A stretch of 58,772 bases of DNA from Candidatus Woesearchaeota archaeon (lineage in GTDB: Archaea > Nanobdellota > Nanobdellia > Pacearchaeales > GW2011-AR1), in assembly GCA_964493655.1 (NCBI GenBank), contig CAZBOY010000001.1, positions 1 to 58,772 of the forward strand. The letters run 5' to 3'. Below are positions 811-16,717 of the stretch, piece by piece; within the stretch, counting starts at the first letter, position 1; the number at the start of each line of letters is the position of its first letter. The notes beneath the pieces were generated by a model that did no database searches, was not told the origin of the DNA, and saw only the letters and a list, made by a program, of their open reading frames with translations. The translations under genes and the position numbers were made by a program.

Positions 811-850
811 TTCACCAATCAAAAGTAGTAAGAAGAGTTTATAAGAAATA
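811..850 (+). promoter_or_regulatory. shared promoter-proximal motif, copy 1 (TTCACCAATCAAAAGTAGTAAGAAGAGTTTATAAGAAATA)
   Basis: The block AAAAGTAGTAAGAAG followed by a TTTATAA TATA-like box ends ~23 nt before ATG 868. The same block lies upstream of 1758, 7050 and 9726. Confidence 0.6.
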
Positions 851-867
851 ATGACGACAAAGTTAAA

Positions 868-1656
868 ATGAGGTGTGTAGCTATCTTGCTCTTAGCAGTT
901 GTGTTTTTATCTTCTTTTGTTTATGCTGGGGTTTATATTAATGAGGTTGAAGCGAATCCTGAAGGAAGCGAGACTAATGAATGGGTTGAACTTTATAATT
1001 CAGGAAATGTTGATATTGATTTAAGTGAATGGAAAATAATTGATGTCGGAGGAATTGAAGATGTTATTCCTTTTGGAACAATTATTCTAACAAAAGGTTT
1101 TTGGGTTTTTACAGAAGATATTTCTTCATTAAGTATAGATAACTCAAATGAACAAATAACCTTAAAAGATAAAACTGGAGAAATTATTGACATAACCCCC
1201 TTACTTAATGATGGGGGGGATGATAATAACACAAATCAACGAATCCCCGACGGAGTAGATAATTGGGAATTTAAAGAACAAACAAAAGGCAAATCAAACT
1301 CACCCCAAGAAAGCACAATAAGTTTTTCTTTATCTCCATTGATTTTTGGAAGTGTGAGCCAAGGGGGTTCGGTTATTAAAAATTCAGTAATAACATTACA
1401 TGAACCAAATAATGTTGATTTATCTTTTGAGATAAGTTTAGAAGAAGGAAGTATTTTTGAAAATCTTTTTTTTGATTTAAATGGCGACGATGTTTCTTCA
1501 GATGATGAACAATTAGATGAAACTCTTAATTATGATGTTGATGATTTAGAAGGAGAGTTTGAGATTAATTTGCCTGTGAGATTGAATATTCCTTTTGGCA
1601 GTGTTGCTGGAAAACATAATGGAAAAATTACATATACTGCAACTGAAAAAATATAA
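868..1656 (+). CDS. secreted lamin-tail-domain (LTD) protein with C-terminal beta-rich domain
   Basis: Signal peptide MRCVAILLLAVVFLSSFVYA. LTD signature INEVEANPEGSETNEWVELYNSG..IDLSEWKI. The C-terminal ISFSLSPLIFGSV... domain resembles the domains in 1758..2822 and 8694..9158. Confidence 0.8.
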   Translation: MRCVAILLLAVVFLSSFVYAGVYINEVEANPEGSETNEWVELYNSGNVDIDLSEWKIIDVGGIEDVIPFGTIILTKGFWVFTEDISSLSIDNSNEQITLKDKTGEIIDITPLLNDGGDDNNTNQRIPDGVDNWEFKEQTKGKSNSPQESTISFSLSPLIFGSVSQGGSVIKNSVITLHEPNNVDLSFEISLEEGSIFENLFFDLNGDDVSSDDEQLDETLNYDVDDLEGEFEINLPVRLNIPFGSVAGKHNGKITYTATEKI

Positions 1657-1696
1657 TTCATCAACTAAAAGTAGTAAGAAGAGTTTATAAAAAATA
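1657..1696 (+). promoter_or_regulatory. shared promoter-proximal motif, copy 2 (TTCATCAACTAAAAGTAGTAAGAAGAGTTTATAAAAAATA)
   Basis: Starts directly after the stop of 868..1656. A TATA-like box lies ~65 nt before ATG 1758, which has a GGGGGT Shine-Dalgarno-like site. Confidence 0.55.
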
Positions 1697-1757
1697 AAAC
1701 AATAAAAAAGTATTCCAATATTATACAATATTGAAAGGGGGTAAAAGGTAAAATAAA

Positions 1758-2822
1758 ATGAAAAAAATTTTAGTTTTTTTGGTTATGTTTGGGTTGATGT
1801 TTGGGTTGGTTGGGGCGGTTGATACAACTGCTATTACAACTTCTCGTTCTGCATCTGGTTTTGCTTTATCTCAGATTTCAGATGTCTGGGCAAATGGGGG
1901 TTCAAATTCTGCGAGATTATTTGCAGCATTAATAACTGGGCCAACAAATGAGGGAAGAGTTAGAATTGATTTTAATGAAGTGGTAACTTTGAATGATATT
2001 GAAAATATTTCCTGGATGCAATATGTAACAGAAGGTTATGCTTCTCATCTTGATTTATTTTTAGATATAGATTTTGATGGTGATGCCGACGAATCTTTAA
2101 ATTTTGAATATGATAAGGTTGCTCATCCTTCAGATCAATCAGTTGGAACTATGAATTATGCAAGAGATTCCTGGATAAATACTTTTGACGATAAAGGGAT
2201 TATTAATAATGGAGCACGTGCATGGTTAAATTCTGGAAGTCCAGGTTGTGGAAATAATGCCTATGATTGTGGAGGATTTATAGATGGATTGTTATCTGAA
2301 TGGAAAGCTGGAACTGCAGACGATTTAAGAATAAATGGTTCTACACGAGTTCTTGGATTTGAAATTGAAGTAGATGGTTGGATTGTAGAATCAGAAGCAT
2401 ATATAGATGATATTGTGATTAATGGAGTAGTTGTCGAAGCTTTTGAAGAATCACAAATTATAGAAGTAGATATTGATGAAGATATTTCTCTTTCAATAAG
2501 TCCTTCTACACTTGATTTTGGTGTTTTGAAAGCAGGAACAATTGATAATCCTGGTCAAAATATTATTTTTGATGCAACAGGAAGTAACACCGATGTTACT
2601 GTTGAAGTTCAAGGTGTAACTGGTTTTCCTTTTGAAACTGGATTAAAGTTTAATAGTCTTGTTCCAATAGGACAATCTGAAACTTTAAATTGTGTTGTTG
2701 TTGGTACTGCTTGTACATATAGTTCAGTAGAATGGACAACATCATTAACAATTCCAGCAGGAACTGTTTCAATGAATTATCAGGGAACTGTTGTTTACTT
2801 AGTTACTGGACCAACACCTTAA
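1758..2822 (+). CDS. secreted protein; C-terminal domain is paralogous to the 8694..9158 product (candidate surface-fibre or sheath subunit)
   Basis: Signal peptide MKKILVFLVMFGLMFGLVGA. The C-terminal ISLSISPSTLDFGVLKAGTIDNPGQNIIFDATGSN...GTVVYLVTG aligns with VVITPTNVEFGEVTAGSIDNLAKNGNIIIDPTGSN...GVVTYTITG. Confidence 0.75.
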   Translation: MKKILVFLVMFGLMFGLVGAVDTTAITTSRSASGFALSQISDVWANGGSNSARLFAALITGPTNEGRVRIDFNEVVTLNDIENISWMQYVTEGYASHLDLFLDIDFDGDADESLNFEYDKVAHPSDQSVGTMNYARDSWINTFDDKGIINNGARAWLNSGSPGCGNNAYDCGGFIDGLLSEWKAGTADDLRINGSTRVLGFEIEVDGWIVESEAYIDDIVINGVVVEAFEESQIIEVDIDEDISLSISPSTLDFGVLKAGTIDNPGQNIIFDATGSNTDVTVEVQGVTGFPFETGLKFNSLVPIGQSETLNCVVVGTACTYSSVEWTTSLTIPAGTVSMNYQGTVVYLVTGPTP

Positions 2823-2823
2823 A

Positions 2824-3516
2824 ATGAAAAACTTATTTATTATTTTTTTAATTATAATGATGGTGGGGCTAGCTGGGGCTAGTGGATTCTCACCATCAAG
2901 TTTAGTTTTTAATCTTGAACCAAATCAAGAAGAATGTCAGATGATAATTATAACTTCTGCTTCAGAAACAATTTCTGTTAATGACTATTGGGCTGAAAAT
3001 GAAAATGTGACTTGGAAAGTTAGTTTATTTAATTCAAGTGCAGGAGAACATAATTTGAATATTATTTATGATAACTCCTTGGGGGAAGGGGAGAGAGAAT
3101 TACAAGTTTGTCTTTCTGGTTCTGAATTAGGAGAGTATCATGGAGTTATAATAATGAAAGAAGAACAGCAGGGAAATTCTGTTGTTCAAATGGGGGTTTG
3201 GTTGAAGGTTGTTATTGAAGAAGTTGAGGAGATAGTTGAAGAACCTGTGGTTAATAATGAGGGTTCTGGAGGGAGGACTTCTCAAACTATATTTATCCCA
3301 AAGGAAAATACAACAGTTGAAACTAGTGGGGATTTAGAAAATCTTGATGAAGTAGAATCTGAAAGTTCGGATATTGAAAGTTCTGAAGAAGAATTTAAAT
3401 CTGGGATTACTGGGGCGGCGGTGGGTTTGTTAGATAGTAAAGGCTCTGTTGCAATTATTAGTTTAGTTGTTTTAGTTGTGATTGCAGTTGGAGTTTATGT
3501 AAGGAGAAATAAATGA
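2824..3516 (+). CDS. membrane-anchored beta-sandwich-like protein (signal peptide, Ig/PapD-like-looking domain, acidic linker, C-terminal TM)
   Basis: Starts 1 nt after the upstream stop. FSPSSLVFNLEPNQEECQMIIITS..., an E/S-rich linker, and a TM helix followed by RRNK. Close paralog of 9160..9684. Confidence 0.75.
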   Translation: MKNLFIIFLIIMMVGLAGASGFSPSSLVFNLEPNQEECQMIIITSASETISVNDYWAENENVTWKVSLFNSSAGEHNLNIIYDNSLGEGERELQVCLSGSELGEYHGVIIMKEEQQGNSVVQMGVWLKVVIEEVEEIVEEPVVNNEGSGGRTSQTIFIPKENTTVETSGDLENLDEVESESSDIESSEEEFKSGITGAAVGLLDSKGSVAIISLVVLVVIAVGVYVRRNK

Positions 3517-5903
3517 AGAAAATATTATTAATATCTTTTGGAATAATCCTAATTAGTTTGCTCTTTGCTTCAGCATTAGGAAAACATCAAAATGTTTATG
3601 TTTATGTTGCAAATGAAACACATGTTCAGAATGAAACATTTCCAAGCTGTGCATTTGCATCTGACAACCTAACACTAAGTTCAAATATAATCTGGGGTGA
3701 GTGCACTCAAGAAGTGTGGGCAAGTGTAAAAATTGGCTCGCAAGATGGGGAAAACTTCACAGCAACTATAGATGGGGGAAATAAATATTATGTAATAATC
3801 CCTCCTAATTTTTCAAATTCCGGAACAAATTTAATTTTTCAATTTTTTGCAAAAGATTGCTTCAACTTTACATATAATGGAAGCGAGAATTCTTTTTACA
3901 TAAGGAATAATACAAAATTAAATGTTAATCCTGAAAACCCAGATGGACTAAATAACTGGTATGTTAACGAACCGATATTTTCTTTAGAAAAAGATGAATC
4001 TGGAAATGATAGTTATTATCAATGGGATTCTACAGGACCTATTCCATATAGTTCTCCTTTTGGTTTAGAAGATATTCCAAACTCCCCACCAAAAGAATCT
4101 GCAGGAACCCTAGAATTAAATTGGTGGACAGATTTTGGTGAGTGTGGAAACGAAAGTAAACAAACTAAAGTTTTTTATGTTGATTTAATCAATCCTCAAA
4201 TTGATAATATTTTTCCCTTAGGAAATTTAATTAATAATCTTAATCCAGTTATCTCTGCTTATTTAGACGAAGTTTATGAAAGTAATTCAGGGATTAATAG
4301 AGACAGTGTTGTAATGAAACTTGATGGTGTGGAGGTTTCTGCAATTGTTGAAAAGCAAGGTTCTATTGATGCAGTCGTTAGTTATCAAACAGAAGAACTA
4401 TCCCAAGGAATTCATGGGGTAGAGATTTATGTTGAAGATAATGCCGGCAGAATAAATCAAACATCCTGGGAATTTTTTGTTATCTTAACCCCAATTTATG
4501 ACTTGCAGATTTTTTCACCAGTAGAAGATATCTATGATTCAAAAAGAATCCAGTTTAACATAAGTTCTGAAAAAGAATTAGATTTAATTGAATATATTGA
4601 TTGGTCTTCTAATAATCCGCGATGGAAAAGATTATGCTCTGATTGTGATGAATATGGATATGATAAAGCAAGAACTAAAACTTTTACAGACGGAGAGCAT
4701 AGTATAACAATTAGAACAATAGATTTGTTTGAGCAGATAAATGAAAAAAATATAAGTTTTTTTATTGATTCCAGAGCACCAAGAGTCTCAAAAACAGAAC
4801 CAAAGAGAGGATTTGCTTCTGGCTTGTTTGAAATTGAGTTTGAAGAAGATAATCCTAAAGAGATGTGGTTAAATTATGGAAATAGTTTTGGGGAGGGTTA
4901 TAGAAATGCTGAAGTTGATTTGAGTGAGTGTGTTATGGATAGAAGATATACTCAGTGTAATATCACAGTGAACTTATCAGATTATGATGGGCAAGAGATT
5001 GAGTATTGGTTTAATATTAGTGATAAGGCGGGGAATACAGATGAATCAAGGCATGAAGATTTAGATGTTGATGTTTCATTTCCAAAAATTAATAATCTTA
5101 CTTATGAAATAGATGGTAAATCTGTTTATTTTATTATTAATATTACTGAACCATATTTAGATGAGGTTAGTTACTTTTATCATGATGGCCAAGGAAGAGA
5201 AAGAAGATTATGTTCTAGATTAAAAGAGGGAATTTGCGAGAAAAAAGTATCTTTTGGAGAAGGTTATCATAATATCACAATTAATGTTATTGATGAAGTT
5301 GAGAATAAGGTTAGTGAGAATGTTTCATTATTTATTGATTCAAAACCCCCAAGAATCTCAAAAACAGAACCAAAGAGAAATCAAGTTACAAATGGCTCTG
5401 ACTTTTTGATAAAATATACAGAGGATAATCTAAAAGAAGTTTCAATTAGTTTTAATCCTGAAACTCCCTTAGAGCAATGTGATGAATCTGGAAGAAATGT
5501 GGAGTGTTTATTTGATTTAAATTTAAATGCTTATGACGGAGAGTGGGTTGAATACTGGTTTAATGTTTCTGATGAGGTTAATACTGTTGGTTCAAGAATC
5601 ACAAGAGTTTTTGTTGATACAACATCTCCTGAATTGAATTTGATTATGCCTTTGGGGGAAGTTTATGGTACAAGAAGAATTAATTTTATGATAGATGTAA
5701 GTGAAGAGGTTAAACTTGAATATAGGGATGAAAAAGATAGCAACCCAAGATGGAGAACTTTATGCACAAGATGTGAGGAATATGGAATCTCAAGAACAAA
5801 AACAAAATCCTTTAAAAAAGGAGAACATGAATTAATAATTCGGGCAAGTGATAAAGCAGGGAACACTGACGAAGAGATAATTAATTTTGAAGTTGACTAT
5901 TAG
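3513..5903 (+). CDS. large secreted multi-domain (tandem Ig-like) surface protein
   Basis: ATGA overlap with the upstream gene and a signal peptide. Internal duplications: IDSRAPRVSKTEPKR / IDSKPPRISKTEPKR, and NPRWKRLCSDCDEYG / NPRWRTLCTRCEEYG. Confidence 0.8.
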   Translation: MKKILLISFGIILISLLFASALGKHQNVYVYVANETHVQNETFPSCAFASDNLTLSSNIIWGECTQEVWASVKIGSQDGENFTATIDGGNKYYVIIPPNFSNSGTNLIFQFFAKDCFNFTYNGSENSFYIRNNTKLNVNPENPDGLNNWYVNEPIFSLEKDESGNDSYYQWDSTGPIPYSSPFGLEDIPNSPPKESAGTLELNWWTDFGECGNESKQTKVFYVDLINPQIDNIFPLGNLINNLNPVISAYLDEVYESNSGINRDSVVMKLDGVEVSAIVEKQGSIDAVVSYQTEELSQGIHGVEIYVEDNAGRINQTSWEFFVILTPIYDLQIFSPVEDIYDSKRIQFNISSEKELDLIEYIDWSSNNPRWKRLCSDCDEYGYDKARTKTFTDGEHSITIRTIDLFEQINEKNISFFIDSRAPRVSKTEPKRGFASGLFEIEFEEDNPKEMWLNYGNSFGEGYRNAEVDLSECVMDRRYTQCNITVNLSDYDGQEIEYWFNISDKAGNTDESRHEDLDVDVSFPKINNLTYEIDGKSVYFIINITEPYLDEVSYFYHDGQGRERRLCSRLKEGICEKKVSFGEGYHNITINVIDEVENKVSENVSLFIDSKPPRISKTEPKRNQVTNGSDFLIKYTEDNLKEVSISFNPETPLEQCDESGRNVECLFDLNLNAYDGEWVEYWFNVSDEVNTVGSRITRVFVDTTSPELNLIMPLGEVYGTRRINFMIDVSEEVKLEYRDEKDSNPRWRTLCTRCEEYGISRTKTKSFKKGEHELIIRASDKAGNTDEEIINFEVDY

Positions 5904-5963
5904 AAATTAGGAAGATTGAAAGGACAGAAAACCTTAAAAAGCATTGTTTCATAATTGGTACAT

Positions 5964-6521
5964 ATGGTTCAAAATAAAAACATAGAGTTAGAGATAATTT
6001 TAAATCTTATAAAAGATAAATCTCATTTAAGAGAAATCTCCAGGTCTATTGGAAAACCCCCTTCAACAGTTTTGAGAAATCTTAATGAACTTGTAAAAGA
6101 AAATATTATTGATTATCGGCAAGAAGGTAAAAATAAAATCTTTTTTATAAAAAATAATTTAAAATCTAAAAATTATGTTTATTCTGCAGAAATTTATAAG
6201 CTGAACAAATTGCTGAAAAAAAATCCTGAATTAGCTATAATCTTCGAGGACATAAAAAATTCTTTTTCAAAAGGCATGATAATTTTATTCGGCAGTTATG
6301 CCAAGGGAAACCCAAAAACAGATAGTGATATTGATGTATATTTAGAAACAGAGGATAATAAGATAAAAAATAAAATAAAAGAATTGAACCAGAAACTAAG
6401 TGTAAAAATTGGAGAGTTTGATTCAACTTCATTATTAATAAAAGAAATAATTAAGAATCATGTTATTGTGAGGGGGGTAGAGGAATATTATGAACAAAAT
6501 AATTTTTTTAAAGAAACTTAA
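5964..6521 (+). CDS. MNT-type nucleotidyltransferase antitoxin with N-terminal wHTH
   Basis: LFGSYAKGNPKTDSDIDVYL (GS..x..DxD minimal nucleotidyltransferase motif). HTH-like LREISRSIGKPPSTVLRNLNELV. ATG at 5964 within the listed ORF. Confidence 0.8.
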   Translation: MVQNKNIELEIILNLIKDKSHLREISRSIGKPPSTVLRNLNELVKENIIDYRQEGKNKIFFIKNNLKSKNYVYSAEIYKLNKLLKKNPELAIIFEDIKNSFSKGMIILFGSYAKGNPKTDSDIDVYLETEDNKIKNKIKELNQKLSVKIGEFDSTSLLIKEIIKNHVIVRGVEEYYEQNNFFKET

Positions 6522-6984
6522 ATATGCAGGAAAATTAGAACTTGTTGAACCTTCTGAAGAAATGAAATTGTCTTATTTGACCAAAGCTGAAAATTGTCTC
6601 AAATCTTCTAAGATTCTATTTCAAAATGAGCTTTATGAAAACTCCACATCAGAGGCATATTATTGCATTTATAATTCCTTACTTGCTTTGTTATTTAAAA
6701 TAGGAATTAAATCTGAAAACCATTCTGCATCTATTTTCTTATTTGACAAACTATTTGATAATAAAGAATTGGTAAAAATAGTATTATGGGCAAAAAAAGA
6801 AAGAATAGATAAACAATATTATGTTGAAACTCAACAAATTCTCAAGGCAACAAAAGAATCTTGCAATGAAATGATCCTAAAGGCAGAAGATTTTCTGTTA
6901 AGATTAAGAGTTATTGTGAGTGAACTAAACAATGAAAAAATAATAGGGATTAGAAAACTTTTTGAGGAATTATTAGGGAATTAA
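6490..6984 (+). CDS. HEPN-domain protein, partner of the MNT gene
   Basis: Overlaps the MNT gene by 32 nt. All-helical ~160 aa protein with a HEPN-like layout (AENCLKSSKILF...ENHSASIF...KKERIDKQYY). I did not see a classical Rx4-6H motif. Confidence 0.6.
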   Translation: MNKIIFLKKLKYAGKLELVEPSEEMKLSYLTKAENCLKSSKILFQNELYENSTSEAYYCIYNSLLALLFKIGIKSENHSASIFLFDKLFDNKELVKIVLWAKKERIDKQYYVETQQILKATKESCNEMILKAEDFLLRLRVIVSELNNEKIIGIRKLFEELLGN

Positions 6985-6989
6985 ATTTT

Positions 6990-7028
6990 TTCACCAAACA
7001 AAAGTAGTAAGAAGTATTTATAAAAAAA
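6990..7028 (+). promoter_or_regulatory. shared promoter-proximal motif, copy 3 (TTCACCAAACAAAAGTAGTAAGAAGTATTTATAAAAAAA)
   Basis: Same AAAAGTAGTAAGAAG block plus a TATA-like box ~25-30 nt before ATG 7050. Confidence 0.6.
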
Positions 7029-7049
7029 GGATGTGTAGTAAAAAAGAAA

Positions 7050-8114
7050 ATGAAAAAGGTGATGGTTGTTTTCTTGCTTGGAATATTTTTAATCAGCTTG
7101 GTTTCTGCAACAAATGTGGCTTATGTTTTGCGAAATCCTGAAAGAGCTGATGCTGGATTTTTGAATGCTTTTAGTGAACTTGGGTTGAATGTTGATTTGA
7201 TTAATGATGGGGATGTTAGGGTTACGGATTTTTCTGGTTATGATTTGATTTTTGTTGGCGACGAGAGATTGAGAAATGCTAAGTATCTTCCGATTGATTC
7301 TGTTTCAAATGTGATTGTAAATGGATATTATGGAAAATTATTTGGCTTGCTTGAAAAAGGTAGAATGTCAAAACTTGCTGCAAATCATCCTCTTAAAATT
7401 AAACAAAATGGCGACGTTGTAAAAGCATATACCACTGCAGAATATCGTGGGAGGAGAATAAATCTTCCTTATTATTTTATCCCAGAGAAATATAAAAAAG
7501 AAAACTCGCAATCAATTGCGACAACTTTTGTAGGATATAAAAAAGAGCTAGGGGATGTTATTTCTTATCTTGATGGGGATGTAAGAAAATGTTTTTTTGG
7601 AATAACTAAAACAAAATATTGGACAGAGGATTCCCGAGAATTGTTTAAAGATTGTGTTGGTTTTGCTATTAGTGGGGAGAATTCTGGAGATGACGACGAT
7701 GAAATAGAAGATGGTATTCATGATGTAGAAATTGTAGAAGATTATGTAAATAGTGTGAATGGGATAAGGATTAAAAATGATGAAACCGGAGAATATTTGT
7801 TAGATGAGATTTCTTCTTTAATGTGTGGAGAAAAATATAAGGTTGATTTTAAGACTTTGAATGTTGGTGATTATACTGAAGATGTTTTAATTTCTGGGTC
7901 TGTTAATGGGTTTGAATGGGGTAGGACTAAAGAAGGGCTTGAATCTGGAAAATCAACAACAACTGGTTCAAAAACAATTACAATAAATGAAGATTTTCCA
8001 ATTGGAACTTATACAATTGAGATTCAAGCATTAATTGAAGAAGATGTAACACCTGAAAATAATATTCGTTCTCGAGATGTTAATGTTGTTTGTCTTGCGA
8101 AAATGGATCAATAA
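7050..8114 (+). CDS. secreted protein: conserved N-terminal alpha/beta-like domain plus C-terminal CARDB-like domain
   Basis: Signal peptide. The N-terminal ~200 aa are paralogous to the N-terminus of 9726..13223 (VAYVLRNP...DLIFVGDERLRN...SKLAANHPL). The C-terminal HDVEIVEDY...PENNIRSRDVNVVC is CARDB-like. Confidence 0.75.
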   Translation: MKKVMVVFLLGIFLISLVSATNVAYVLRNPERADAGFLNAFSELGLNVDLINDGDVRVTDFSGYDLIFVGDERLRNAKYLPIDSVSNVIVNGYYGKLFGLLEKGRMSKLAANHPLKIKQNGDVVKAYTTAEYRGRRINLPYYFIPEKYKKENSQSIATTFVGYKKELGDVISYLDGDVRKCFFGITKTKYWTEDSRELFKDCVGFAISGENSGDDDDEIEDGIHDVEIVEDYVNSVNGIRIKNDETGEYLLDEISSLMCGEKYKVDFKTLNVGDYTEDVLISGSVNGFEWGRTKEGLESGKSTTTGSKTITINEDFPIGTYTIEIQALIEEDVTPENNIRSRDVNVVCLAKMDQ

Positions 8115-8145
8115 GGATTTTATTAATCTTCAAAAGATTTCTGCT

Positions 8146-8250
8146 TAGGAGCTGACTAATTTAATCTTTATAGTGCCTGATGAAATTTTTCCATATCTTA
8201 AATAGGGTTGGGAAAAATTTCCGCAGAAGCTTCCTAAAGCATTATCACTA
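8146..8250 (+). repeat. nested-palindrome hairpin element, copy 1
   Basis: Stem 8182-8192 GAAATTTTTCC pairs with 8211-8221 GGAAAAATTTC; 18-nt loop starts ATATCTTA. Right flank is CGCAGAAGCTTCCTAAAGCATTATCAC. Confidence 0.75.
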
Positions 8251-8320
8251 AAACTACATCGAGTATTTTGCCAATTCATAAACCCTAATTTTTATTAATA
8301 ACTAACTTATCTTCAACTGG

Positions 8321-8425
8321 TTAGCTGACTGTTTTTTGTTGGTGGTTGTTGCGGAAATTTACCCTTATCTTATTTTTTGTTGGGGGTAAATTTCACCAGA
8401 GGTTTTGAAGAGCACTAAGCTTAAT
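8321..8425 (+). repeat. nested-palindrome hairpin element, copy 2 (in tandem with copy 1)
   Basis: Stem 8354-8364 GAAATTTACCC pairs with 8384-8394 GGGTAAATTTC; loop starts TTATCTTA. Flanks are TTAGCTGACTG...TTGGTGG and TTTTGAAGAGCACTAAGC. Confidence 0.75.
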
Positions 8426-8693
8426 ACTAACACAAAAAGATTTTTTAAATAATAAATCTCATAGAAAACTTTCCTTTAAACTTAGTCAGAAGGATTATTT
8501 ATTTATTCAGTTTTTGGTCTTTTGGAGGGATGTCTTTGGGAGAATCATTAACTTGTGCTGTGGGTTAATTGGGTTAATTCATCGAAATTTAGTAGTGCTA
8601 TAAATTTATATATGTAACTATTTCTAAATTAAAACAGAAAATGGAACTGACAAAGGAATTTATGATAAATAGTATTGAAAGGAGGTATAATAA

Positions 8694-9158: not shown

Positions 9159-9159
9159 A

Positions 9160-9684
9160 ATGAAAACATTATTTTTTATTTTTTTAATTATAATGATGGT
9201 GGGGCTAGCTGGGGCTAGTGGATTCTCACCATCAAGTTTGGTTTTTAATCTTGGACCTAATCAAGAAGAATGCCAAATAATAACAATCACCTCTAATTCA
9301 CTGACGATAAATGTGGATGATAAATGGGCTACTAATAGTGATGTTGAATGGAAAGTAAGTTTGTTTAATTCAAGTGCAGAAGAACATAATCTAAATATTA
9401 ATTATGATAACTCCTTGGGGGAAGAGGAGAGAGAATTACAAGTTTGTCTTTCTGGTTCTGAATTAGGAGAATATCATGGAGTTATAATAATGAAAGAAGA
9501 ACAGCAGGGAAATTCTGTTGTGCAAATGGGGGTTTGGTTGAAGGTTGTGGTTGCAGAAAATATTGATAAAAATATTGATAAAACAATTATCTTGGGGGTG
9601 CTCTTTATTTTAATTATGATATCTTTTTTGTTTTTGATTAAAAAGAAAAGTAAGGGTGTAAGTTATTTCATCAAAACCCAGTAG
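9160..9684 (+). CDS. membrane-anchored beta-sandwich-like protein, paralog of 2824..3516
   Basis: Starts 1 nt after the upstream stop. A 62-bp run is identical to 2842-2903, and ~200 bp (9349-9548) is near-identical to 3013-3212. The C-terminal TM anchor differs. Confidence 0.8.
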   Translation: MKTLFFIFLIIMMVGLAGASGFSPSSLVFNLGPNQEECQIITITSNSLTINVDDKWATNSDVEWKVSLFNSSAEEHNLNINYDNSLGEEERELQVCLSGSELGEYHGVIIMKEEQQGNSVVQMGVWLKVVVAENIDKNIDKTIILGVLFILIMISFLFLIKKKSKGVSYFIKTQ

Positions 9685-9705
9685 TAAGACATGTTTATAT
9701 ATAGA
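9667..9705 (+). promoter_or_regulatory. shared promoter-proximal motif, copy 4, more diverged (TTCATCAAAACCCAGTAGTAAGACATGTTTATATATAGA)
   Basis: Overlaps the stop codon of 9160..9684. A GTAGTAAGA core plus a TATA-like box lie ~25 nt before ATG 9726. Confidence 0.45.
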
Positions 9706-9725
9706 AAACTTCTAAAAAAACCAGT

Positions 9726-12700
9726 ATGAAAAAGCAATTGGTATTTTTAATTTTAGGTTTGATTTTGATTAGTTCTGTTTCTGCTGCAGATGTTGCTTAT
9801 ATTTACAGAAGCTCTTCAATGGTTGACGACAATGTCTTAGATGTTTTTTCTGGTTTGCATTTAAGTGTTGATTTAATCAATGAAGATACTCTTCCAAAAG
9901 ATTTTTCAAATTATAAATTTCTTTTTATTGGAGATGAGAGTTTCAGAAATGAAGAAAACATTCCGGTGGATAAATATCCTTCAATTATTACAAGTTATTC
10001 TTTTGGAAAAGAGTTTGGTTTAACTGATGCTGATGGGGTTTCAAAACTTGCGGCTAATTCTCCTCTCCAAGTAAAAAAAGATAATCAGGCAATTCAGGTT
10101 TATACTCAAGCAAAATATAGTTTAGGAGGTATTGCAATTCCTTATTATTTTTTAGATGATCATAATAAAGCTCCTCAGATGCAATCTGTTGCAAGAACTT
10201 ATACTGGGATTAATCAAGAAAATGATTTCGGGGATGTAATTAGTTATGCTGGTCCAGGTGCAGATTTACTTAATGGAAATGAACTTGATAGTAAGCTGTG
10301 CTTTTTTGGAATAATTGAAAGTGACTACTGGACACCTGCTGCTCGTGAGTTGTTTGAAGATTGTGCTGGTTTTGTTGGAATAACTTGTGAGGGGGATAAT
10401 GATTGTCCTGATGATGAAGAGCTAGACAAATTCTGTAGAAATGATGATGTTTATGTTGAAGTTGAAAAATATGATTGTAAAAACGACGGGACTTTTAATT
10501 CTGAGTGTGTTTCTAATACAGATGATGAACTAGAAAAGAATTGTGATTACTTTTGTTATGATGCTGAATGTGTAAGGTGTAATTTTGATTACAATTGTGA
10601 CGACGGAAATATCCGGACTGAAGATAGTTGTGTAAATCCTAAGACAACACAGAGTTATTGTGAATATGGGGATATAACTTGTTTTAATGATAATGAATGC
10701 GACGATGAAAATAATTATACTAAAGATACTTGTTTAAGCCCTGGAACTGTGAACAGTGAATGTAAGCATGAAAACATAATTTGTTTTGAAAATGAAGATT
10801 GCAATGATGAAAATGATTATACAAAAGACCTATGTAGAAATCCCGGGACAGTTCAATCTCAATGTGAATATCAAGATATAGGTTGTCTTAATGATTTTGA
10901 TTGTGAAGATAATAATGAAAGAACTTTTGATGAGTGTGTAAACCCTGGAACTTCAATCAGCGAATGTAGAAATACTGAAATGAATTGTTTGAATGATGCA
11001 GATTGTGGGATTACCGGATTTGTTGGAGAAGAATTCTGCAACCATAATAATGTTTGGAAAACAAAACAAATTGCTCTTTGTCATAATCCTGCGACAATCT
11101 TGAGCTCTTGTGCTATTGCTGTTTATCCTGAATTAATCCAAGATTGCGATGATGGAGATATTTATACTATTGATAGTTGTGTAGAAGATGGAATTGCTCA
11201 TTGCGAGCATAAATTTTTAGAATGTTTAATAGATTCTGATTGCGACGAAGATTATTATACTAACTGGGAATTTTCTTGTGAACAGGACGATGTTATAAAA
11301 ACAAGAGAGCTTCATGATTTTTTCTGTTGTTTTGGTGAATGTTCTTTTTGTCAAGATCCTTGTGAAATAAATCAGAATACTTGTAAGGAATCAATAACTC
11401 CTGAAACAGAGTTTGTTGCTAATTGTGAATATGGATGTGATGATGGTGAATGTTTGCAAGGATGTTATGAAGATTCTGATTGTGGAGAGGTTCATTATGG
11501 GGAAAGATATTGTGAAGGAAGCAGTTCTATTTTAGAAGAATTCACACCAACTTGTACTGAAGGTGAATGTGGAGAAGAATTAAATCTTATTACTAATATT
11601 TGTTTGTATGGATGTGATGATGGAAAATGTAATGAGCCAGAATGTTCTGTTGCTGAAGATTGCGGGGATGTTGTTGAATCTCTTGAATGTGTTGGAGATG
11701 ATTTAGTTAAAACAATTACAACACCTATTTGTATTGAAGGTCTTTGTGGTGAAGAAACTTCTAATGAAACAACTTATTGTGAATATGGATGTGCAAATGA
11801 CGAATGTATAGAGCCTCCAATTGAATGTAATGCAAATCTAGATTGTGGATTAAATCAATTTTTAAATCAGGAATTTTGCCAGAACAATGATGTGTTTGAT
11901 AATTTTATAGTTTATAGTTGTGTAAATCCTGGACAAGTAAATAGTTATTGTGAAGAAGCGATTAATCCTCAATTAATTGAGGACTGCGGTGATGATTCTA
12001 ATGGTGAGTGGGGAAATTATTGTAAGGGTGATGATGTTTGGAGAACAAGAGATAATATAGATAAGGGATGTGTTTCTGGAGAATGCTTTTCAGAAACAGT
12101 TGTTGAAGATGAATTTCTTGTTGCTTGTGAATATGGATGTGATAATGGAAGTTGTATTGAAGGAACTCATGATGTTGCTTTAGTTGATTTTACTAATTCT
12201 GTTAATGGAATCGGTATTCAAGATTTAGGAGGAAATTATATTTTAGGAAATACTGCAACATTGAATTGCAATCAAGAATATAAAATATGGATTGATGTTG
12301 AGAACAAAGGAGATTTTGGAGAAGCAGTTGAATTTGAAAGTTTTGTTGATGGCTTGTTATTTAATCATCTTCAGGTTGATAATCTTCTTCCACAAGAGAA
12401 TAAATTAAAATATAGAACTGTTAATTTTTCATTAGAAGAAGGGGCTTATACAATCTCTGTTGAAGCTATTATAAACTCTGATGATAATTTAGAGAATAAT
12501 CTTGTTCAGAGAAATATAGAAATTGTTTGTGAAGAACCACCAATTGTATGTGAAAGAGATTCTGACTGTGGAACAAACCAATGGATTGGGGATGCACTTT
12601 GTTCAAATAATGATGTTAACCAAAACTTTAAAGTTTTCACATGTTTAAATCCTGGAACAATTAATTCTCAATGTGTTGATCAGGTTGATTTGATTTTAAA

Positions 12701-13223
12701 AAATGATTGCGGTGATGATTCTAATGGTGAATGGGAAAACTATTGTAAAGCAGATGATGTTTGGAGAACAAGAGATAATATAGATAAAGGATGTGTATCT
12801 GGAGATTGTTATTCTGAGGAATCTACTCAAGATGAATTTCTTGTTGCTTGTGAATATGGATGTGCAAATGACGAATGTATAGAGCCTCCAATTGAATGTA
12901 ATGCAAATCTAGATTGTGGATTAAATCAATTTTTAAATCAGGAATTTTGCCAGAACAATGATGTGTTTGATAATTTTATAGTTTATAGTTGTGTAAATCC
13001 TGGACAAGTAAATAGTTATTGTGAAGAAGCGATTAATCCTGAACTTATTGAGGATTGTGGTGATGATTCATTTGGAAATACTTATTGTATTGGAAAGGAT
13101 ATTTATCAAAATCAAACAGTAGTTAGTTGTGCTGATGCAAATTGTTTTAGTGAAATAAATCCTGTATTAGTTGGAAGTTGTGACTACAGATGTGCAAATG
13201 GGGGTTGCATAGCTTGTGTTTAA
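9726..13223 (+). CDS. giant secreted Cys-rich modular surface protein (1165 aa) with an internal CARDB-like domain
   Basis: Signal peptide and an N-domain paralogous to 7050..8114. Tandem 34-aa four-Cys modules (C-x5-C-x10-C-x9-C, e.g. CFNDNECDDENNYTKDTCLSPGTVNSECKHENII). Larger duplicated Cys-rich units. CARDB-like HDVALVDF...ENNLVQRNIEIVC. Confidence 0.85.
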   Translation: MKKQLVFLILGLILISSVSAADVAYIYRSSSMVDDNVLDVFSGLHLSVDLINEDTLPKDFSNYKFLFIGDESFRNEENIPVDKYPSIITSYSFGKEFGLTDADGVSKLAANSPLQVKKDNQAIQVYTQAKYSLGGIAIPYYFLDDHNKAPQMQSVARTYTGINQENDFGDVISYAGPGADLLNGNELDSKLCFFGIIESDYWTPAARELFEDCAGFVGITCEGDNDCPDDEELDKFCRNDDVYVEVEKYDCKNDGTFNSECVSNTDDELEKNCDYFCYDAECVRCNFDYNCDDGNIRTEDSCVNPKTTQSYCEYGDITCFNDNECDDENNYTKDTCLSPGTVNSECKHENIICFENEDCNDENDYTKDLCRNPGTVQSQCEYQDIGCLNDFDCEDNNERTFDECVNPGTSISECRNTEMNCLNDADCGITGFVGEEFCNHNNVWKTKQIALCHNPATILSSCAIAVYPELIQDCDDGDIYTIDSCVEDGIAHCEHKFLECLIDSDCDEDYYTNWEFSCEQDDVIKTRELHDFFCCFGECSFCQDPCEINQNTCKESITPETEFVANCEYGCDDGECLQGCYEDSDCGEVHYGERYCEGSSSILEEFTPTCTEGECGEELNLITNICLYGCDDGKCNEPECSVAEDCGDVVESLECVGDDLVKTITTPICIEGLCGEETSNETTYCEYGCANDECIEPPIECNANLDCGLNQFLNQEFCQNNDVFDNFIVYSCVNPGQVNSYCEEAINPQLIEDCGDDSNGEWGNYCKGDDVWRTRDNIDKGCVSGECFSETVVEDEFLVACEYGCDNGSCIEGTHDVALVDFTNSVNGIGIQDLGGNYILGNTATLNCNQEYKIWIDVENKGDFGEAVEFESFVDGLLFNHLQVDNLLPQENKLKYRTVNFSLEEGAYTISVEAIINSDDNLENNLVQRNIEIVCEEPPIVCERDSDCGTNQWIGDALCSNNDVNQNFKVFTCLNPGTINSQCVDQVDLILKNDCGDDSNGEWENYCKADDVWRTRDNIDKGCVSGDCYSEESTQDEFLVACEYGCANDECIEPPIECNANLDCGLNQFLNQEFCQNNDVFDNFIVYSCVNPGQVNSYCEEAINPELIEDCGDDSFGNTYCIGKDIYQNQTVVSCADANCFSEINPVLVGSCDYRCANGGCIACV
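11778..11969 (+). repeat. perfect 192-bp intragenic direct repeat, copy A
   Basis: Identical base for base to 12849-13040 when read by eye. Encodes CEYGCANDECIEPPIECNANLDCGLNQFLNQEFCQNNDVFDNFIVYSCVNPGQVNSYCEEAINP. Confidence 0.9.
12849..13040 (+). repeat. perfect 192-bp intragenic direct repeat, copy B
   Basis: Lies 1071 bp downstream of copy A. The neighbouring duplicated units are clearly more diverged (roughly one difference per 8-10 nt by eye). Confidence 0.9.
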
Positions 13224-13224
13224 G

Positions 13225-14301
13225 ATGGTAAATGATTATTCAAGAAGAGCATTTGTTAGTAGCATATTAGGGGCTGTATGTGGGGGGTGTGCAAAAATCG
13301 CCGGAGATTATATGAAAGATCCAGAAGCCACTCCAGGTATTTTAAGAGAGGGTATTGCAAGACCTTATAATGCAGTAAGTGTTGAAGTTCCTACAAATTC
13401 TGAAGATGCTAGAAATAAAATGAATGAAGGTTTAGGGAGAATTCCACAAAATCTTGTTAGACTTGTTGATAGTGTTACAAGTATAGTGGGAATTCGAGGA
13501 GGAAGATATTGCGGTTTAGTTTCAACAACTGAAAGATTTAATCCACCAAAAGGAAAGGAATTTGAATATAGAGTAAGAGCAATTGTAACTCAACCAGGAA
13601 GGGGTATTGCAGATGTTTTAGAATGTGCTTCTAATTTAATTGGAGATATTGTTAAACCAGGTGTACAAGCTGTGAATTTGGGTATGGTTCTTCCCCTATC
13701 TTCAAATAATGTTAATGTTGATGCATGGACAGATGTGGTTAAAGGGCCATTGAGAGCAGGATTATATTTAGGACAGGAAATGGCTGGAGTTGGATTGCCT
13801 GCTTCTTGGAAATCTAGTGTTTTTGGTATGAAAAAATGGGCAGGATTTGATTTAAGTGAAGAAGATGAAAGAACTCATCAAGAATTACAAATGAAATTTA
13901 AAAGATTATATGAAGGAGAAATAAAACCAGATATTGCAAGGGTTATTGTAAATGCAATACCTGCTGTTGGAAATAGTTTAGATAGTTTATTTTGGAGAAC
14001 AAATGTAAGGGGTAATAGTGGGACATACCAAATTGTTGTTAATTTCATGGAAAATGGAATACCTGCTCCAGTGCATGTTGGAGATGAATCATTTGCAGAT
14101 GATAAAAAATGGTATGGTAAGGATAAAGATCCTACAAAAGCTCCTGGAGTTTTTATAAATAATGAATTCAGACCGGCAAAATCTGTTTTATTAGAATTAA
14201 TAAAATTAGCTCCATCTTTTGCTGGTTCTGGTGGTGGGGGTGGTGGTGGCGCAAGTCCTGCTAGTGGTGGTGGTCGTTCAGGAGGTTCTGGAGGAAGATG
14301 A
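13225..14301 (+). CDS. protein of unknown function with a twin-arginine-like N-terminus and a Gly-rich C-terminal tail
   Basis: ATG lies 1 nt after the stop of the giant gene. N-terminus MVNDYSRRAFVSSILGAVCGGCA; C-terminus SGGGGGGGASPASGGGRSGGSGGR. Confidence 0.7.
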   Translation: MVNDYSRRAFVSSILGAVCGGCAKIAGDYMKDPEATPGILREGIARPYNAVSVEVPTNSEDARNKMNEGLGRIPQNLVRLVDSVTSIVGIRGGRYCGLVSTTERFNPPKGKEFEYRVRAIVTQPGRGIADVLECASNLIGDIVKPGVQAVNLGMVLPLSSNNVNVDAWTDVVKGPLRAGLYLGQEMAGVGLPASWKSSVFGMKKWAGFDLSEEDERTHQELQMKFKRLYEGEIKPDIARVIVNAIPAVGNSLDSLFWRTNVRGNSGTYQIVVNFMENGIPAPVHVGDESFADDKKWYGKDKDPTKAPGVFINNEFRPAKSVLLELIKLAPSFAGSGGGGGGGASPASGGGRSGGSGGR

Positions 14302-15257
14302 AAAAAACAATAACAATTTTATTGCTGGTATTATTTTTAAGTTTAAACTTAGTAATTGCCGATAGATATGAGGATAATAATATTAAATATGGAAAAATTG
14401 ATTCTGGCGGAAACTTAATTGAAACTTCAACTCCTATCAATGGTGCGAGTGTTTTAGGATTTGTTTGCAGTTCTGCAGATTGTGGAAGTGTGTCAGGAAG
14501 ATTATGGTCAAATATACTGAATACAAATACTGATTTTATTCAATTGGTTTATCCATATGAATTATTATCTAATTTTGGTTATGGGGTTTACTTTTTTAAA
14601 GATGGATATATTCCTTATGAAGTTGATGTAGATTGGTGGGGAACAAATTCCGGAGATCCTGTAGGACCTTATGATAATTATTTATCTAAAAAAGAAATGT
14701 GCGTTTCGGATATAAGTAATTTAGGAGTTGCTCTTGATAATCATAATGTAGATGTGAATCTTAAAGTTAAATCTCCTATTGATAATTCAGGTCCTTTAGA
14801 TTATATTCCTTCTGAACTTAAAGAACATTATAGTGCAGATGTAGGAGTTGAACTTGATGTTTTGAAAGATGATTCTTCATATTATGAAAAAACAGAATCC
14901 GTAGATATTCCATTTTCTGAAAAAAAGAATGTTGGTTTTTCTTTTGCTGCTGAACCTGGAGATTATGAATTAGTTGTTTCTACTTTTATTGGTGATGACA
15001 AATGTTTAAGTTATGAACCTGATGAACAAATTAAGAAGTTTACAATTTGCTATGTAAATAATGATTGTGGTTCTTCAGCATGTATTGAAAACGGAAACTA
15101 TTGCGGAGTTGACGGAAACATCTATCATGATTATGCAGGTTTAAAATGTGAAAATCCTGGAACACTAAATGGGGTATGTTCGCAAATTTCTGAAAGCAGA
15201 AAAATAGGGACTTGTTTATATGGTTGTGGAAGTGGAAAATGTTTGGGTAAGGGGTAG
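14298..15257 (+). CDS. secreted protein with a C-terminal Cys-rich module like those of the giant protein
   Basis: ATGA overlap with the upstream gene and a signal peptide. C-terminus CYVNNDCGSSACIENGNYCGVDGNIYHDYAGLKCENPGTLNGVCS...CLYGCGSGKC. Confidence 0.75.
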   Translation: MKKTITILLLVLFLSLNLVIADRYEDNNIKYGKIDSGGNLIETSTPINGASVLGFVCSSADCGSVSGRLWSNILNTNTDFIQLVYPYELLSNFGYGVYFFKDGYIPYEVDVDWWGTNSGDPVGPYDNYLSKKEMCVSDISNLGVALDNHNVDVNLKVKSPIDNSGPLDYIPSELKEHYSADVGVELDVLKDDSSYYEKTESVDIPFSEKKNVGFSFAAEPGDYELVVSTFIGDDKCLSYEPDEQIKKFTICYVNNDCGSSACIENGNYCGVDGNIYHDYAGLKCENPGTLNGVCSQISESRKIGTCLYGCGSGKCLGKG

Positions 15258-15316
15258 GTTTTAAGTTTAGTTAAAAATGTTGAAGCCTAAAATTGGGAAA
15301 AAGAGTTCTGTGAAAA

Positions 15317-15985
15317 ATGGTAAATGTTTTTGAACAACACAAGGCAGAAAACGAAAAAGGCAAGCATGTAAGATTAAGTTATAGAAATAGGGATGTTCTT
15401 ATTTTTGAACATTGTAGAGATAATCCAGTGGTTTCTGAATGGGTTTTAAACTATAATGTTTTTATTCCTTCTTCACAACTCCTTTTATTTAATTTCGGAC
15501 ATGCTTGGGATTTTTTAGAAAAATTAAGAAAAAGAAATGCAAGAAATGTAAATGATGCTATTGAAGAAGCTGGATTAGGAAATACAAGACATGGATTATT
15601 GCAACAATGTTCTAATATTCAGGCTTGGATATCTATGATTAGTTCTGGACCAGATAGATTGCCTTTAGATTGTCAAACTGCTGAAAGATATATTTTAGAG
15701 AGAGAATATCAGGCAACACAGATTACTCGTGGACAGGGTTCTGTTTTGATTGAAGATTATTCTGAACATCCAAATCCTTTTGCAATTACGTTTCCCTATA
15801 ATCTAGGAGCCTCGCTTTTTCTTTCGCAAATAAGGATTAATGCTTTTGATGCAGATGTTGCTGGAGAATTATCCAATTTGGTTTCTAATGTTGGTGCTGT
15901 TAAAATTGAAGAAGGAAACTTAAAAGAATTAGAAAAATCTTTAGAACAAGTTTTATCTGAATTTACAGTTTCGATTAATAGATAA
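15317..15985 (+). CDS. hypothetical cytoplasmic protein
   Basis: 222-aa ORF in an AT-rich background. No signal peptide or motif recognised. Confidence 0.6.
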   Translation: MVNVFEQHKAENEKGKHVRLSYRNRDVLIFEHCRDNPVVSEWVLNYNVFIPSSQLLLFNFGHAWDFLEKLRKRNARNVNDAIEEAGLGNTRHGLLQQCSNIQAWISMISSGPDRLPLDCQTAERYILEREYQATQITRGQGSVLIEDYSEHPNPFAITFPYNLGASLFLSQIRINAFDADVAGELSNLVSNVGAVKIEEGNLKELEKSLEQVLSEFTVSINR

Positions 15986-16015
15986 TTTTAAATTCTTAAG
16001 TTTATTATTCAAACT

Positions 16016-16717
16016 ATGAACTGGAAAAAAATCGTAATTATTTTTCTTATTATTTCTTCAGGGATATTTTATTATCAACTTACTGGAAAAGCTATTTATC
16101 AGATGCAAAATGTTTTTATTGTAAGAGTTCTCGACGGAGATACAGTTGAATTGCAAGGTGGTGAAAAAATAAGGTTGCTTGGGATTAATACTCCTGAAAA
16201 AAATATGTTTTATTTTGAAGAGGCGAAATTATTTTTGGAAAAATTGGTTTTAAATAAGAGTGTTGGTTTTGAGTTGAAAGACACAGATAAATATGGGCGG
16301 TGGCTTGGTTATATTTTTGTTGGGGATAAAATGATTAATGAGAAAATATTGAATGAAGGTTTAGCATCTCTTTATGTTTATGAACCTGATGAGTATTTTG
16401 AGAAGCTTGAAAAAGCAGAGGAATTTGCTAGGGGGAATGGGCTTGGGATTTGGAGGAAGTCTTCTCAGGATGGCTGTGTTGAGCTTAGAGAGTTAAAATT
16501 TCAAGAAGATGAACGATGTAATAATAAGGAAAAATTGGTTTTGTTTAATAATTGTGGAGAGATTGATGTTTTGATTAAAGATGATGCTACACATATTTAT
16601 CTGGAGGTTTTACAGCCTGGCTTGAATGAATTTAATTTTTCGTGTGTATGGAATGATGCGGGAGATTCTATATTTATTTTTGATGAGAAGGGGCTTTTGT
16701 TGTTTTGGAGATATTGA
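16016..16717 (+). CDS. membrane-anchored/secreted staphylococcal-nuclease-like (SNase) protein with a C-terminal lamin-tail-like domain
   Basis: N-terminal TM helix. SNase motifs VRVLDGDTVEL..IRLLGINTPE...DKYGRWLGYIF. C-terminus KEKLVLFNNCGEIDVLIKDD...WNDAGDSIFIFDEKG is LTD-like. Confidence 0.8.
   Translation: MNWKKIVIIFLIISSGIFYYQLTGKAIYQMQNVFIVRVLDGDTVELQGGEKIRLLGINTPEKNMFYFEEAKLFLEKLVLNKSVGFELKDTDKYGRWLGYIFVGDKMINEKILNEGLASLYVYEPDEYFEKLEKAEEFARGNGLGIWRKSSQDGCVELRELKFQEDERCNNKEKLVLFNNCGEIDVLIKDDATHIYLEVLQPGLNEFNFSCVWNDAGDSIFIFDEKGLLLFWRY

Follow-up and report, generated by a model that had tools for sequence, protein, structure and literature searches.

The 58,772-bp window analysed here, a complete contig in NCBI from a low-GC archaeon (31.7% G+C), raises the question of what is built by the dense run of genes at its left end. 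Between positions 868 and 16,717, fourteen open reading frames (ORFs) follow one another, all on the plus strand, as a preliminary description of the sequence had reported; they are labelled g1 to g14 here. By sequence comparison, this island holds two paralogous copies of one lineage-specific module. Its invariant unit is a secreted protein that ends in a small immunoglobulin (Ig)-like domain, the g8-type domain, followed by a membrane-anchored Ig protein, g3 or g9. We propose, with a probability of about 0.45, that the module builds an adhesive display or fibre system tethered to the membrane and bearing the lamin tail domain (LTD) and further heads; an anchored, apparently active staphylococcal nuclease (SNase) is encoded nearby.

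An all-against-all BLAST comparison of the island proteins revealed that the cluster is made of paralogues. Mature g8 is, over its whole length, homologous to the last ~120 aa of both g1 and g2; the C-terminus of g1 shares 30% identity with g8 and is matched by a profile of the g8 domain at 1.5e-32. The g3 and g9 proteins are 86% identical across their first 133 residues, and the DNA counterpart of this similarity is a 403-nt repeat. In addition, g7 exhibits 44% identity to the N-terminal domain of g10 and 34% identity to aa 815-935 of the same protein. The genes and the repeat concerned are as follows.

868-1656, plus strand: g1, signal peptide, LTD (aa 20-108) and C-terminal g8-type Ig domain (aa 150-262)
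1758-2822, plus strand: g2, signal peptide, ~200-aa head of no known family and C-terminal g8-type Ig domain (aa 232-354)
2824-3516, plus strand: g3, signal peptide, Ig domain, acidic linker, 'ITG' motif, C-terminal transmembrane helix and basic tail
3513-5903, plus strand: g4, secreted Ig-repeat protein of 796 aa containing the 'g4 core' (~270 aa) twice
7050-8114, plus strand: g7, two-domain secreted protein, paralogue of regions of g10
8694-9158, plus strand: g8, 154-aa secreted stand-alone pilin-like Ig domain with an extra strand at the mature N-terminus
9160-9684, plus strand: g9, signal peptide, PapD-like/ASH-type Ig domain and C-terminal transmembrane helix; shortened, without linker and ITG motif
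9726-13223, plus strand: g10, Cys-rich secreted giant of 1165 aa with 101 Cys (8.7%); g7-type N-terminal domain, Cys modules and g7-type beta domain
9156-9558, plus strand, versus 2820-3222: direct repeat of 403 nt, the 5' halves of g9 and g3, ~87% identical

Copy 1 runs from g1 and g2, each with a g8-type domain, through the anchored g3 to the large secreted g4, and copy 2 consists of g8, g9 and g10; a toxin-antitoxin-like pair (g5/g6) and g7 lie between the copies. The preliminary description had presented the surface proteins as a list of parallel items and missed what the paralogy reveals as a two-copy module, namely g1/g2-g3-g4 and g8-g9-g10, with g7 as a paralogue of g10. In public records, the start codons of g3 and g9 are placed 11 codons further downstream, which gives proteins of 219 and 163 aa and cuts into the signal peptide; the longer ORFs used here are backed by an alignment with 28 homologues.

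The gene order of the module recurs across related archaea. A triplet of a g8- or g2-like gene, a g9-like gene and a g4-like gene was present in 10 of the 10 independent genome or contig loci examined, and a metagenome scan with the g9 alignment yielded 69 loci, many of them from 0.1-um groundwater fractions and one on a 722-kb contig. Neighbours of 62 non-redundant g9-family genes were counted in the metagenomes using hidden Markov models built from the family alignments. A g8-domain gene was located immediately upstream on the same strand in 48 of 52 informative cases, and a g4-core gene immediately downstream in 34 of 50. It is therefore apparent that the invariant unit is a protein ending in the g8 domain together with an anchored g9 protein. 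A g1-like fusion of an LTD and a g8 domain lay directly upstream of the g9-family gene in six non-redundant loci; in a divergent sub-clade (L086-L092), such a fusion always precedes g9, and a ~205-aa unassigned protein occupies the g4 position. A g7/g10-family gene occurred within five genes downstream of g9 in 11 loci, and g10 homologues adjoin the module in L010, L013, L014 and L024.

All relatives of the island proteins came from genomes of Woesearchaeota, Pacearchaeota or Nanoarchaeota, and aIF2-gamma, aIF5B, Kae1 and gyrase A/B are encoded downstream of the island in the window. The relatives and the archaeal markers agree with the earlier view of a dense surface-protein cluster of a DPANN-type, probably symbiotic archaeon, and, as judged from these comparisons, the core module is vertically conserved and lineage-specific to Woese- and Pacearchaeota. 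These results bear directly on a reading that follows the preliminary description, in which the island would be strain-variable and possibly acquired, and host specificity would be tuned by mutually independent adhesins together with enzymes for scavenging DNA. Around the core, species do differ in the heads, the length of g4, the giants and the toxin-antitoxin insertions, and one hybrid contig (L005) hints at recombination between cassettes. However, an exact protein look-up recovered 14 other contigs carrying these genes from several samples, and all were 99.9-100% identical and colinear, that is, one population. The composition of the island (GC 0.31-0.34) equals that of the rest of the contig (window 0.317). 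No integrase or other sign of a mobile element was seen in the ORFs examined, and no tRNA flanks an island boundary: the sole RNA gene found in the window, for tRNA-Asp, lies 2 kb beyond, after a housekeeping U32 peptidase gene. Moreover, the order of the core is conserved across dozens of related lineages. A variable or acquired island is thus largely refuted for the core, and we regard it as very unlikely overall.

The g8-domain profile was searched exhaustively against 1.84 billion representative proteins. There were 175 matches at E < 1e-3, and ~110 of the best 150 spanned the whole domain; a word-indexed homologue search with g8 found only g8 itself. The most frequent architecture, accounting for ~70 of the ~110 full-length matches listed, was a stand-alone secreted protein of ~150 aa. 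The others were g2-like proteins of ~350 aa, LTD fusions or tandem domains of ~270 aa, and a few long proteins with the domain last. The remaining matches were bacterial repeat proteins, which cover the first half of the domain only and represent generic ASH or 'choice-of-anchor' repeats. The domain ends no more than eight residues from the C-terminus in 50 of 54 proteins, and the heads that precede it vary, including the LTD, the g2 head and giants of up to 1200 aa. Because of this C-terminal position, the family matches the head-plus-pilin-domain architecture of tip adhesins.

None of the core families of the module is present in Pfam or NCBIfam. A Pfam scan of the family alignments gave nothing credible, the match of DUF4402 (E = 0.008) to one of 59 g8 members being taken as noise, and sequence and profile searches of the PDB with g8, g2, g10 and g4, with the g8-, g2- and g9-family profiles and with alignment A6 also returned noise only. 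The g2 protein has no Pfam match and no sequence match in the PDB; its homologues share 38-55% identity and, in GTDB genomes, all belong to Woesearchaeota, Pacearchaeota or Nanoarchaeota. Taken singly, g2, g3, g7, g8, g9, g10, g11, g12 and g13 match no Pfam or NCBIfam family, in line with the earlier statement that most of the products have no assignable family.

The terminal position of the domain could also be that of a sorting or docking tag. The g8-type domain would then bind g3/g9 one-to-one without polymerisation and so keep a variety of secreted heads attached to the cell surface, like the C-terminal domain of the type IX secretion system or a dockerin. Such a role would suit a domain found at the extreme C-terminus of otherwise unrelated proteins (50/54), with the anchor gene adjacent in 48/52 cases and with a model that forms a complete seven-strand sandwich. 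It sits poorly with the commonest member of the family, a cargo-less protein of ~150 aa (~70 of the ~110 full-length matches listed), which is hard to explain as a tag, and with the existence of tandem two-domain members; no known sorting-domain model matches. We consider a docking tag unlikely, and the same holds for its corollary that the stand-alone g8 proteins are competitors, caps or regulators.

A monomer model of g8 was predicted with AlphaFold2 from 59 family members and reached a predicted local distance difference test (pLDDT) score of 93.5. In a Foldseek search, its best PDB matches were FimG/FimF (E = 2.6e-4 to 1.2e-3, TM-score 0.44-0.55), followed by subunits of the Csu, CFA/I (CfaB), Saf, Caf1 and Pap (PapA) systems; approximately two-thirds of the top 50 matches were subunits of chaperone-usher pili. 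In the stand-alone g8 family, a conserved Gln follows the predicted signal-peptidase site and leads into a short strand in which hydrophobic residues alternate, positions 30, 32 and 34 being hydrophobic in 76, 86 and 98% of members, respectively. In the monomer model this N-terminal strand remains unpaired; nothing corresponding to it is seen in the g9 family, and g1 lacks it. These features are possible clues to strand donation; we hold true donor-strand polymerisation to be doubtful.

The g9 family comprises 48 homologues with 47-67% identity, all annotated as hypothetical, and the anchored partner (45-67%) is more conserved than the secreted g8 subunit (20-44%). The AlphaFold2 model of g9, built from 30 members, has a pLDDT of 86.5 and consists of a seven-strand domain followed by a transmembrane helix. 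Foldseek matched it to ASH/PapD-like domains of hydin and CEP192 and, at E = 5e-4 to 1e-3, to FimC and CsuC, which are pilus chaperones; the S-layer protein SbsC is its fourth-best structural match. The models of g8 and g9 support the earlier characterisation of g2 and g8 as fibre-subunit-like and of g3 and g9 as anchored beta-sandwich proteins, and the matches of both are to adhesion-type Ig-like sandwich folds, as had been suggested. In members of the g3/g9 family, a signal peptide generally precedes an Ig domain, which a long Ser/Gly/acidic linker joins to a C-terminal transmembrane helix.

The same layout is known from S-layer anchors and from the C-termini of S-layer glycoproteins. The module could be an envelope or S-layer-type scaffold and not a dedicated adhesion fibre; the membrane-anchored stalk, comparable to SlaB of Sulfolobales, would be g3/g9, and g8, g2 and g4 would form the lattice or canopy. 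The layout of g3/g9 would suit an S-layer anchor, the rank of SbsC among the matches of g9 points in the same direction, and so does the strong ribosome-binding site of g8. Furthermore, the module is near-universal and syntenic in the lineage, as would be expected of a core envelope component. On the other hand, no S-layer family was found in any product in the Pfam and NCBIfam scans, the preliminary description having set ordinary S-layer or housekeeping families against its view of the island. The main subunits are very small (150 aa), and archaeal S-layer proteins usually have several hundred to more than 1000 aa. Variable heads before one C-terminal domain are easier to reconcile with the presentation of a range of cargo than with a uniform lattice, and in structure g8 is best matched by fibre subunits and not by lattice proteins. 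On balance an S-layer-type scaffold seems improbable.

A conserved tail was noticed in this context. The pattern [G/S/R]-I-T-G-x-[AVI]-[IVT]-G, followed after 5-15 aa by a transmembrane helix and a basic tail, occurs on non-homologous proteins with signal peptides, at 3400-3516 (g3), at 26080-26210 (the end of a 959-aa protein) and in loci L009, L011 and L013-L017. Its Thr hardly varies across the g9 family; the g9 of the window has lost the motif. The tail matched none of the NCBIfam sorting-signal models and may represent an undescribed sorting or anchoring signal.

In the adhesive display or fibre system that we favour, the components would act as follows. The PapD-like Ig domain of g3/g9 would face outward, tethered by the C-terminal transmembrane helix, and the C-terminal g8-type domain would serve as the assembly or attachment module, docking on the anchored g3/g9 or polymerising from it by edge-strand (donor-strand-like) complementation. 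The stand-alone g8 would be the repeating subunit, and g1 and g2 would be two-domain adhesins composed of a head and a pilin domain, comparable to FimH of type 1 pili. On the short fibre or anchored complex so formed, the LTD and other heads would be displayed for attachment to a host cell or to DNA and other polymers, and the membrane-anchored SNase of g14 would break down extracellular DNA at the surface of the cell, allowing nucleotides to be salvaged. We infer the interaction of the components, their polymerisation, the identity of the ligand and the role in host attachment. A stronger form of the proposal is an usher-less anchor/chaperone and pilin system, in which small Ig subunits polymerise from the anchored PapD-like protein by donor-strand complementation and carry FimH-style tip adhesins with the LTD or the g2 head, making up the principal fibre of the lineage for host attachment or for capture of extracellular DNA. 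We advance this form with considerable reserve. If it existed, it might be an archaeal analogue of chaperone-usher pili, arisen by independent invention or related by very distant kinship; this too is a tentative suggestion that we would not favour at present.

Several points weigh against the adhesive display or fibre system, in addition to the differences from known filaments described at the end. The models from which the assembly is proposed are all of monomers. A TM-score of ~0.5 for g8 is borderline for small Ig-like sandwiches, and MSP and integrin domains score alike; similarly, many generic Ig V domains score like the pilus chaperones for g9. The g8 model is already seven-stranded without the N-terminal segment, so that the predicted fold may be complete and need no donor strand. 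In g2, a donor-like segment also separates the head from the Ig domain, and in P0014, P0016 and P0018 it lies between tandem domains; it may be part of the g8 domain itself. Copy 2 (g8-g9-g10) has no g4-type gene, and its g9 has lost the linker. Finally, DNA binding by a prokaryotic LTD is not established.

The genes and elements of the island outside the module core are listed below.

820-844, plus strand: 25-nt promoter-like element, a purine-rich stretch and TTTATAA, 24 nt upstream of the g1 ATG
1666-1690 and 6999-7023: further copies of the 25-nt element, before g2 and before g7, respectively
5955-6521, plus strand: g5, winged helix-turn-helix and MNT-type nucleotidyltransferase, cytoplasmic, antitoxin-like
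6490-6984, plus strand: g6, HEPN-domain protein, toxin-like partner of g5
8115-8693: non-coding gap of 579 nt ahead of g8, with a strong AGGAGG ribosome-binding site at its end
13225-14301, plus strand: g11, 358 aa; SRRAF motif, Cys-containing hydrophobic stretch and Gly-rich C-terminal tail
14298-15257, plus strand: g12, secreted; C-terminal Cys module like that of g10 (CxNPGT...C...YGC..G.C), 13 Cys
15317-15985, plus strand: g13, 222 aa, without export signal
16016-16717, plus strand: g14, N-terminally anchored SNase with an 85-aa Cys-containing C-terminal domain that is possibly LTD-like

Export signals were called by a heuristic hydrophobicity scan for N-terminal hydrophobic segments, which is not a dedicated signal-peptide predictor. 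A Sec-type N-terminal segment was found in ten genes (g1, g2, g3, g4, g7, g8, g9, g10, g12 and g14), with a C-terminal transmembrane helix in addition in g3 and g9, and g11 was counted as exported on the basis of its twin-arginine-like SRRAF motif and the hydrophobic stretch after it. No export signal was detected by the scan in g5, g6 and g13. Exported products therefore make up 11 of 14 in the island and 4 of 41 in the rest of the window (Fisher p = 3e-6), and this clustering of export genes is far beyond chance. The enrichment claimed in the preliminary description is thus upheld, and its count of 12 of 14 is to be lowered to 11.

The individual predictions of that description fared as follows. 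The LTD of g1 is a match to PF00932 (E = 4e-14, 53.2 bits versus the 34.3-bit Pfam cut-off), and the LTD region of ExeM is also matched, weakly and locally, so the g1 assignment is sound; we infer its DNA binding by analogy with the eukaryotic lamin literature and from the co-occurrence of LTDs with hydrolases. The 796-aa g4 was rightly called an Ig-repeat protein, since Big_13 matches it (E = 9e-13) and internal repeats are present. The secreted SNase of g14 is likewise borne out: PF00565 matches at E = 1e-22 (81 bits versus the 21-bit cut-off), and in a comparison with a PDB thermonuclease (E = 2.5e-19), the catalytic residues R35, E43 and R87 and the Ca2+ ligands D21 and T41 are conserved and the third ligand, D40, is replaced by N, so that the catalytic core is apparently intact and the enzyme probably active. 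Its LTD-like tail fared less well. The alignment of the g14 C-terminus with LTDs had an hhalign probability of 57%, which is weak, and neither a Pfam match nor a BLAST match was obtained; a homologue with the architecture of g14 occurs in L017 (Pacearchaeota). The CARDB domain (PF07705) assigned to g7 has to be withdrawn, as no match was found at E <= 10 to the whole protein, to its isolated C-terminal region or to the g10 counterpart, and none to 27 family members. The g7 family consists of 62 homologues, all hypothetical proteins, the named ones being from Pacearchaeota and Nanoarchaeota; some carry DUF4215 or an LTD.

Other readings of single genes were correct. The Cys-rich nature of the giant g10 is evident from its 101 Cys, and the C-terminus of g12 is also Cys-rich, sharing the Cys-module motif of g10 as read from the sequences. 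For the g5/g6 pair, g5 matches NTP_transf_2, Polbeta and HTH_24 in Pfam (the NCBIfam MntA score of 32.8 is below its cut-off of 60), g6 matches HEPN (E = 1e-11), and the two ORFs overlap; judged by these domain matches, they are an adjacent MNT-HEPN (type VII) toxin-antitoxin-like pair. Toxin-antitoxin pairs were observed in or beside the module in three genomes: the MNT-HEPN pair at 5955-6984, HicAB in L024 (9912-10390), and HepT-MNT with PIN-MazE in L026 (7281-8553).

The twin-arginine-like motif and the Gly-rich tail noted earlier in g11 are visible in its sequence. The signal region contains a Cys (possible lipobox), the tail is 25 residues long, and no homologue was found in the libraries searched. 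The composition of g11 is odd for the genome, being rich in Arg, Gly, Ala and Pro, with the highest GC of the island (0.367). A 174-aa protein with a clear twin-arginine signal (MENRREFFGK...) is encoded at 42123-42647 on the plus strand; because this protein supports twin-arginine translocation (Tat) in the organism, the Tat-like reading of g11 is favoured. Neither g11 nor g12 nor g13 had a match in Pfam, NCBIfam, PHROGs, PADLOC or a phage tblastn search, and none of the three was present in the related loci examined.

The 25-nt element CAAAAGTAGTAAGAAGAGTTTATAA was found only upstream of g1, g2 and g7 (three matches with at most two mismatches, 0 expected) and was not found in more distant related loci. 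It is probably a shared archaeal promoter (BRE/TATA; BRE, B-recognition element), and this sharing points to co-regulation of g1, g2 and g7. A scan for sigma-70 promoters and terminators stayed at background level and is uninformative for an archaeon. In the 579-nt gap ahead of g8, no ORF, no pseudogene remnant or decayed gene and no Rfam family was found.

On contig ERZ27248922 k141_39640 (L005), the order is g7-g8-(g9/g3 hybrid)-g4, and the switch from g9 to g3 falls within a stretch of 50 identical nt. No exact match between the g3 and g9 repeats exceeds 64 nt, and the final k of the assembler was 141. Because this length is well below k, the contig may be a real recombinant or duplication between cassettes and not a chimera. 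Contigs L001, L006, L007 and L008 break at 9205-9212. A diversity-generating retroelement was considered and rejected: the direct repeats of the island stem from paralogous genes and from repeats within proteins and do not form template/variable pairs, although reverse transcriptase was not specifically searched for. Elsewhere in the window, GC skew on the plus strand is strongly positive from 1 to 30000 (0.22-0.42 per 2 kb), where nearly all genes are co-oriented, and collapses beyond ~30 kb, where gene orientation turns mixed. Two more surface proteins, outside the island and divergently encoded, are a 256-aa protein with a signal peptide and a C-terminal transmembrane helix (22439-23209, minus strand) and the 959-aa sortilin/BNR-like protein with the ITG-type tail (23331-26210, plus strand).

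Woese- and Pacearchaeota are very abundant, tiny archaea of groundwater and sediment, and the module bears on the question of how they hold on to partners and obtain nucleotides; to our knowledge, no member has been cultivated. A near-invariant gene pair that lacks annotation in the databases searched is a testable candidate for their attachment apparatus. The g9 family provides a ready marker with which such loci can be found and compared, and the variable heads (the LTD, the g2 head and the Cys-rich giants) are candidates for determinants of host or ligand specificity. Even if the fibre model is wrong, the module would still be a conserved envelope core of a major uncultivated archaeal group.

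Among known systems, the chaperone-usher pili (type 1/P, Csu and CFA/I) are the nearest in predicted structure. The predicted g8 fold is closest to their pilins, FimC and CsuC are among the structural matches of the PapD-like Ig domain encoded next to g8, g1 and g2 have a FimH-like layout, and the N-terminal strand of g8 has alternating hydrophobic residues. Nevertheless, no usher family was matched by any of the 14 products in Pfam and NCBIfam. Archaea have no outer membrane. In addition, g9 has one PapD-like domain tethered to the membrane, whereas PapD-type chaperones are soluble and have two domains, and the module proteins show no detectable sequence similarity to solved pilins or to the archaeal thread subunit. 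Since there is no usher, a single tethered PapD-like domain and no sequence similarity, the locus fails membership of the chaperone-usher family.

The S-layer operons of the SlaA/SlaB type, in which secreted protein(s) are co-transcribed with a beta-sandwich partner anchored by a C-terminal transmembrane helix, resemble g3/g9 in layout. They differ from the module, whose proteins bear no similarity to theirs at the family level, whose subunits are far smaller and whose variable heads are placed on a shared C-terminal domain. With the ExeM-type LTD hydrolases, the locus shares a bona fide LTD in g1 and a thermonuclease homologue in g14; in g1, however, the LTD is fused to a pilin-like domain and not to a hydrolase. 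In contrast to staphylococcal nuclease, g14 is N-terminally anchored and has an extra Cys-containing C-terminal domain.

Archaeal filaments assembled by strand donation form a further group. The threads of Sulfolobus (Saci_0406/0405) are donor-strand-complemented filaments assembled without a known chaperone (PMC9715654), and bundling pili (AbpA, TasA-like), the cannulae of Pyrodictium and the Tat-fimbriae of haloarchaea are described as other archaeal donor-strand filaments. The likeness to the module lies in small Sec- or Tat-exported beta-sandwich subunits that polymerise without an ATPase or known chaperone and in genes located beside that of a related minor or cap subunit. Against this likeness, Saci_0406 ranked 50 in the Foldseek search with g8 (TM-score 0.29, probability 0.30), no Peptidase_M73/TasA match to Pfam was found in 59 g8-family members, and the threads, judging from PMC9715654, have no conserved membrane-anchored PapD-like partner gene. 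The present family is, moreover, restricted to Woese-, Pace- and Nanoarchaeota, and the locus does not qualify as a member of the archaeal thread or TasA/Abp families, although it may work in a manner similar to both these filaments and the chaperone-usher pili.

In an incomplete literature search, no description of a donor-strand system in Woese- or Pacearchaeota was found, DPANN and donor strands co-occurring only in a general review. The proposed fibre would link this lineage to the growing list of donor-strand-assembled archaeal filaments. Surface adhesins or fibres of the Ig fold are a kind already known; here the kind is built from undescribed families.

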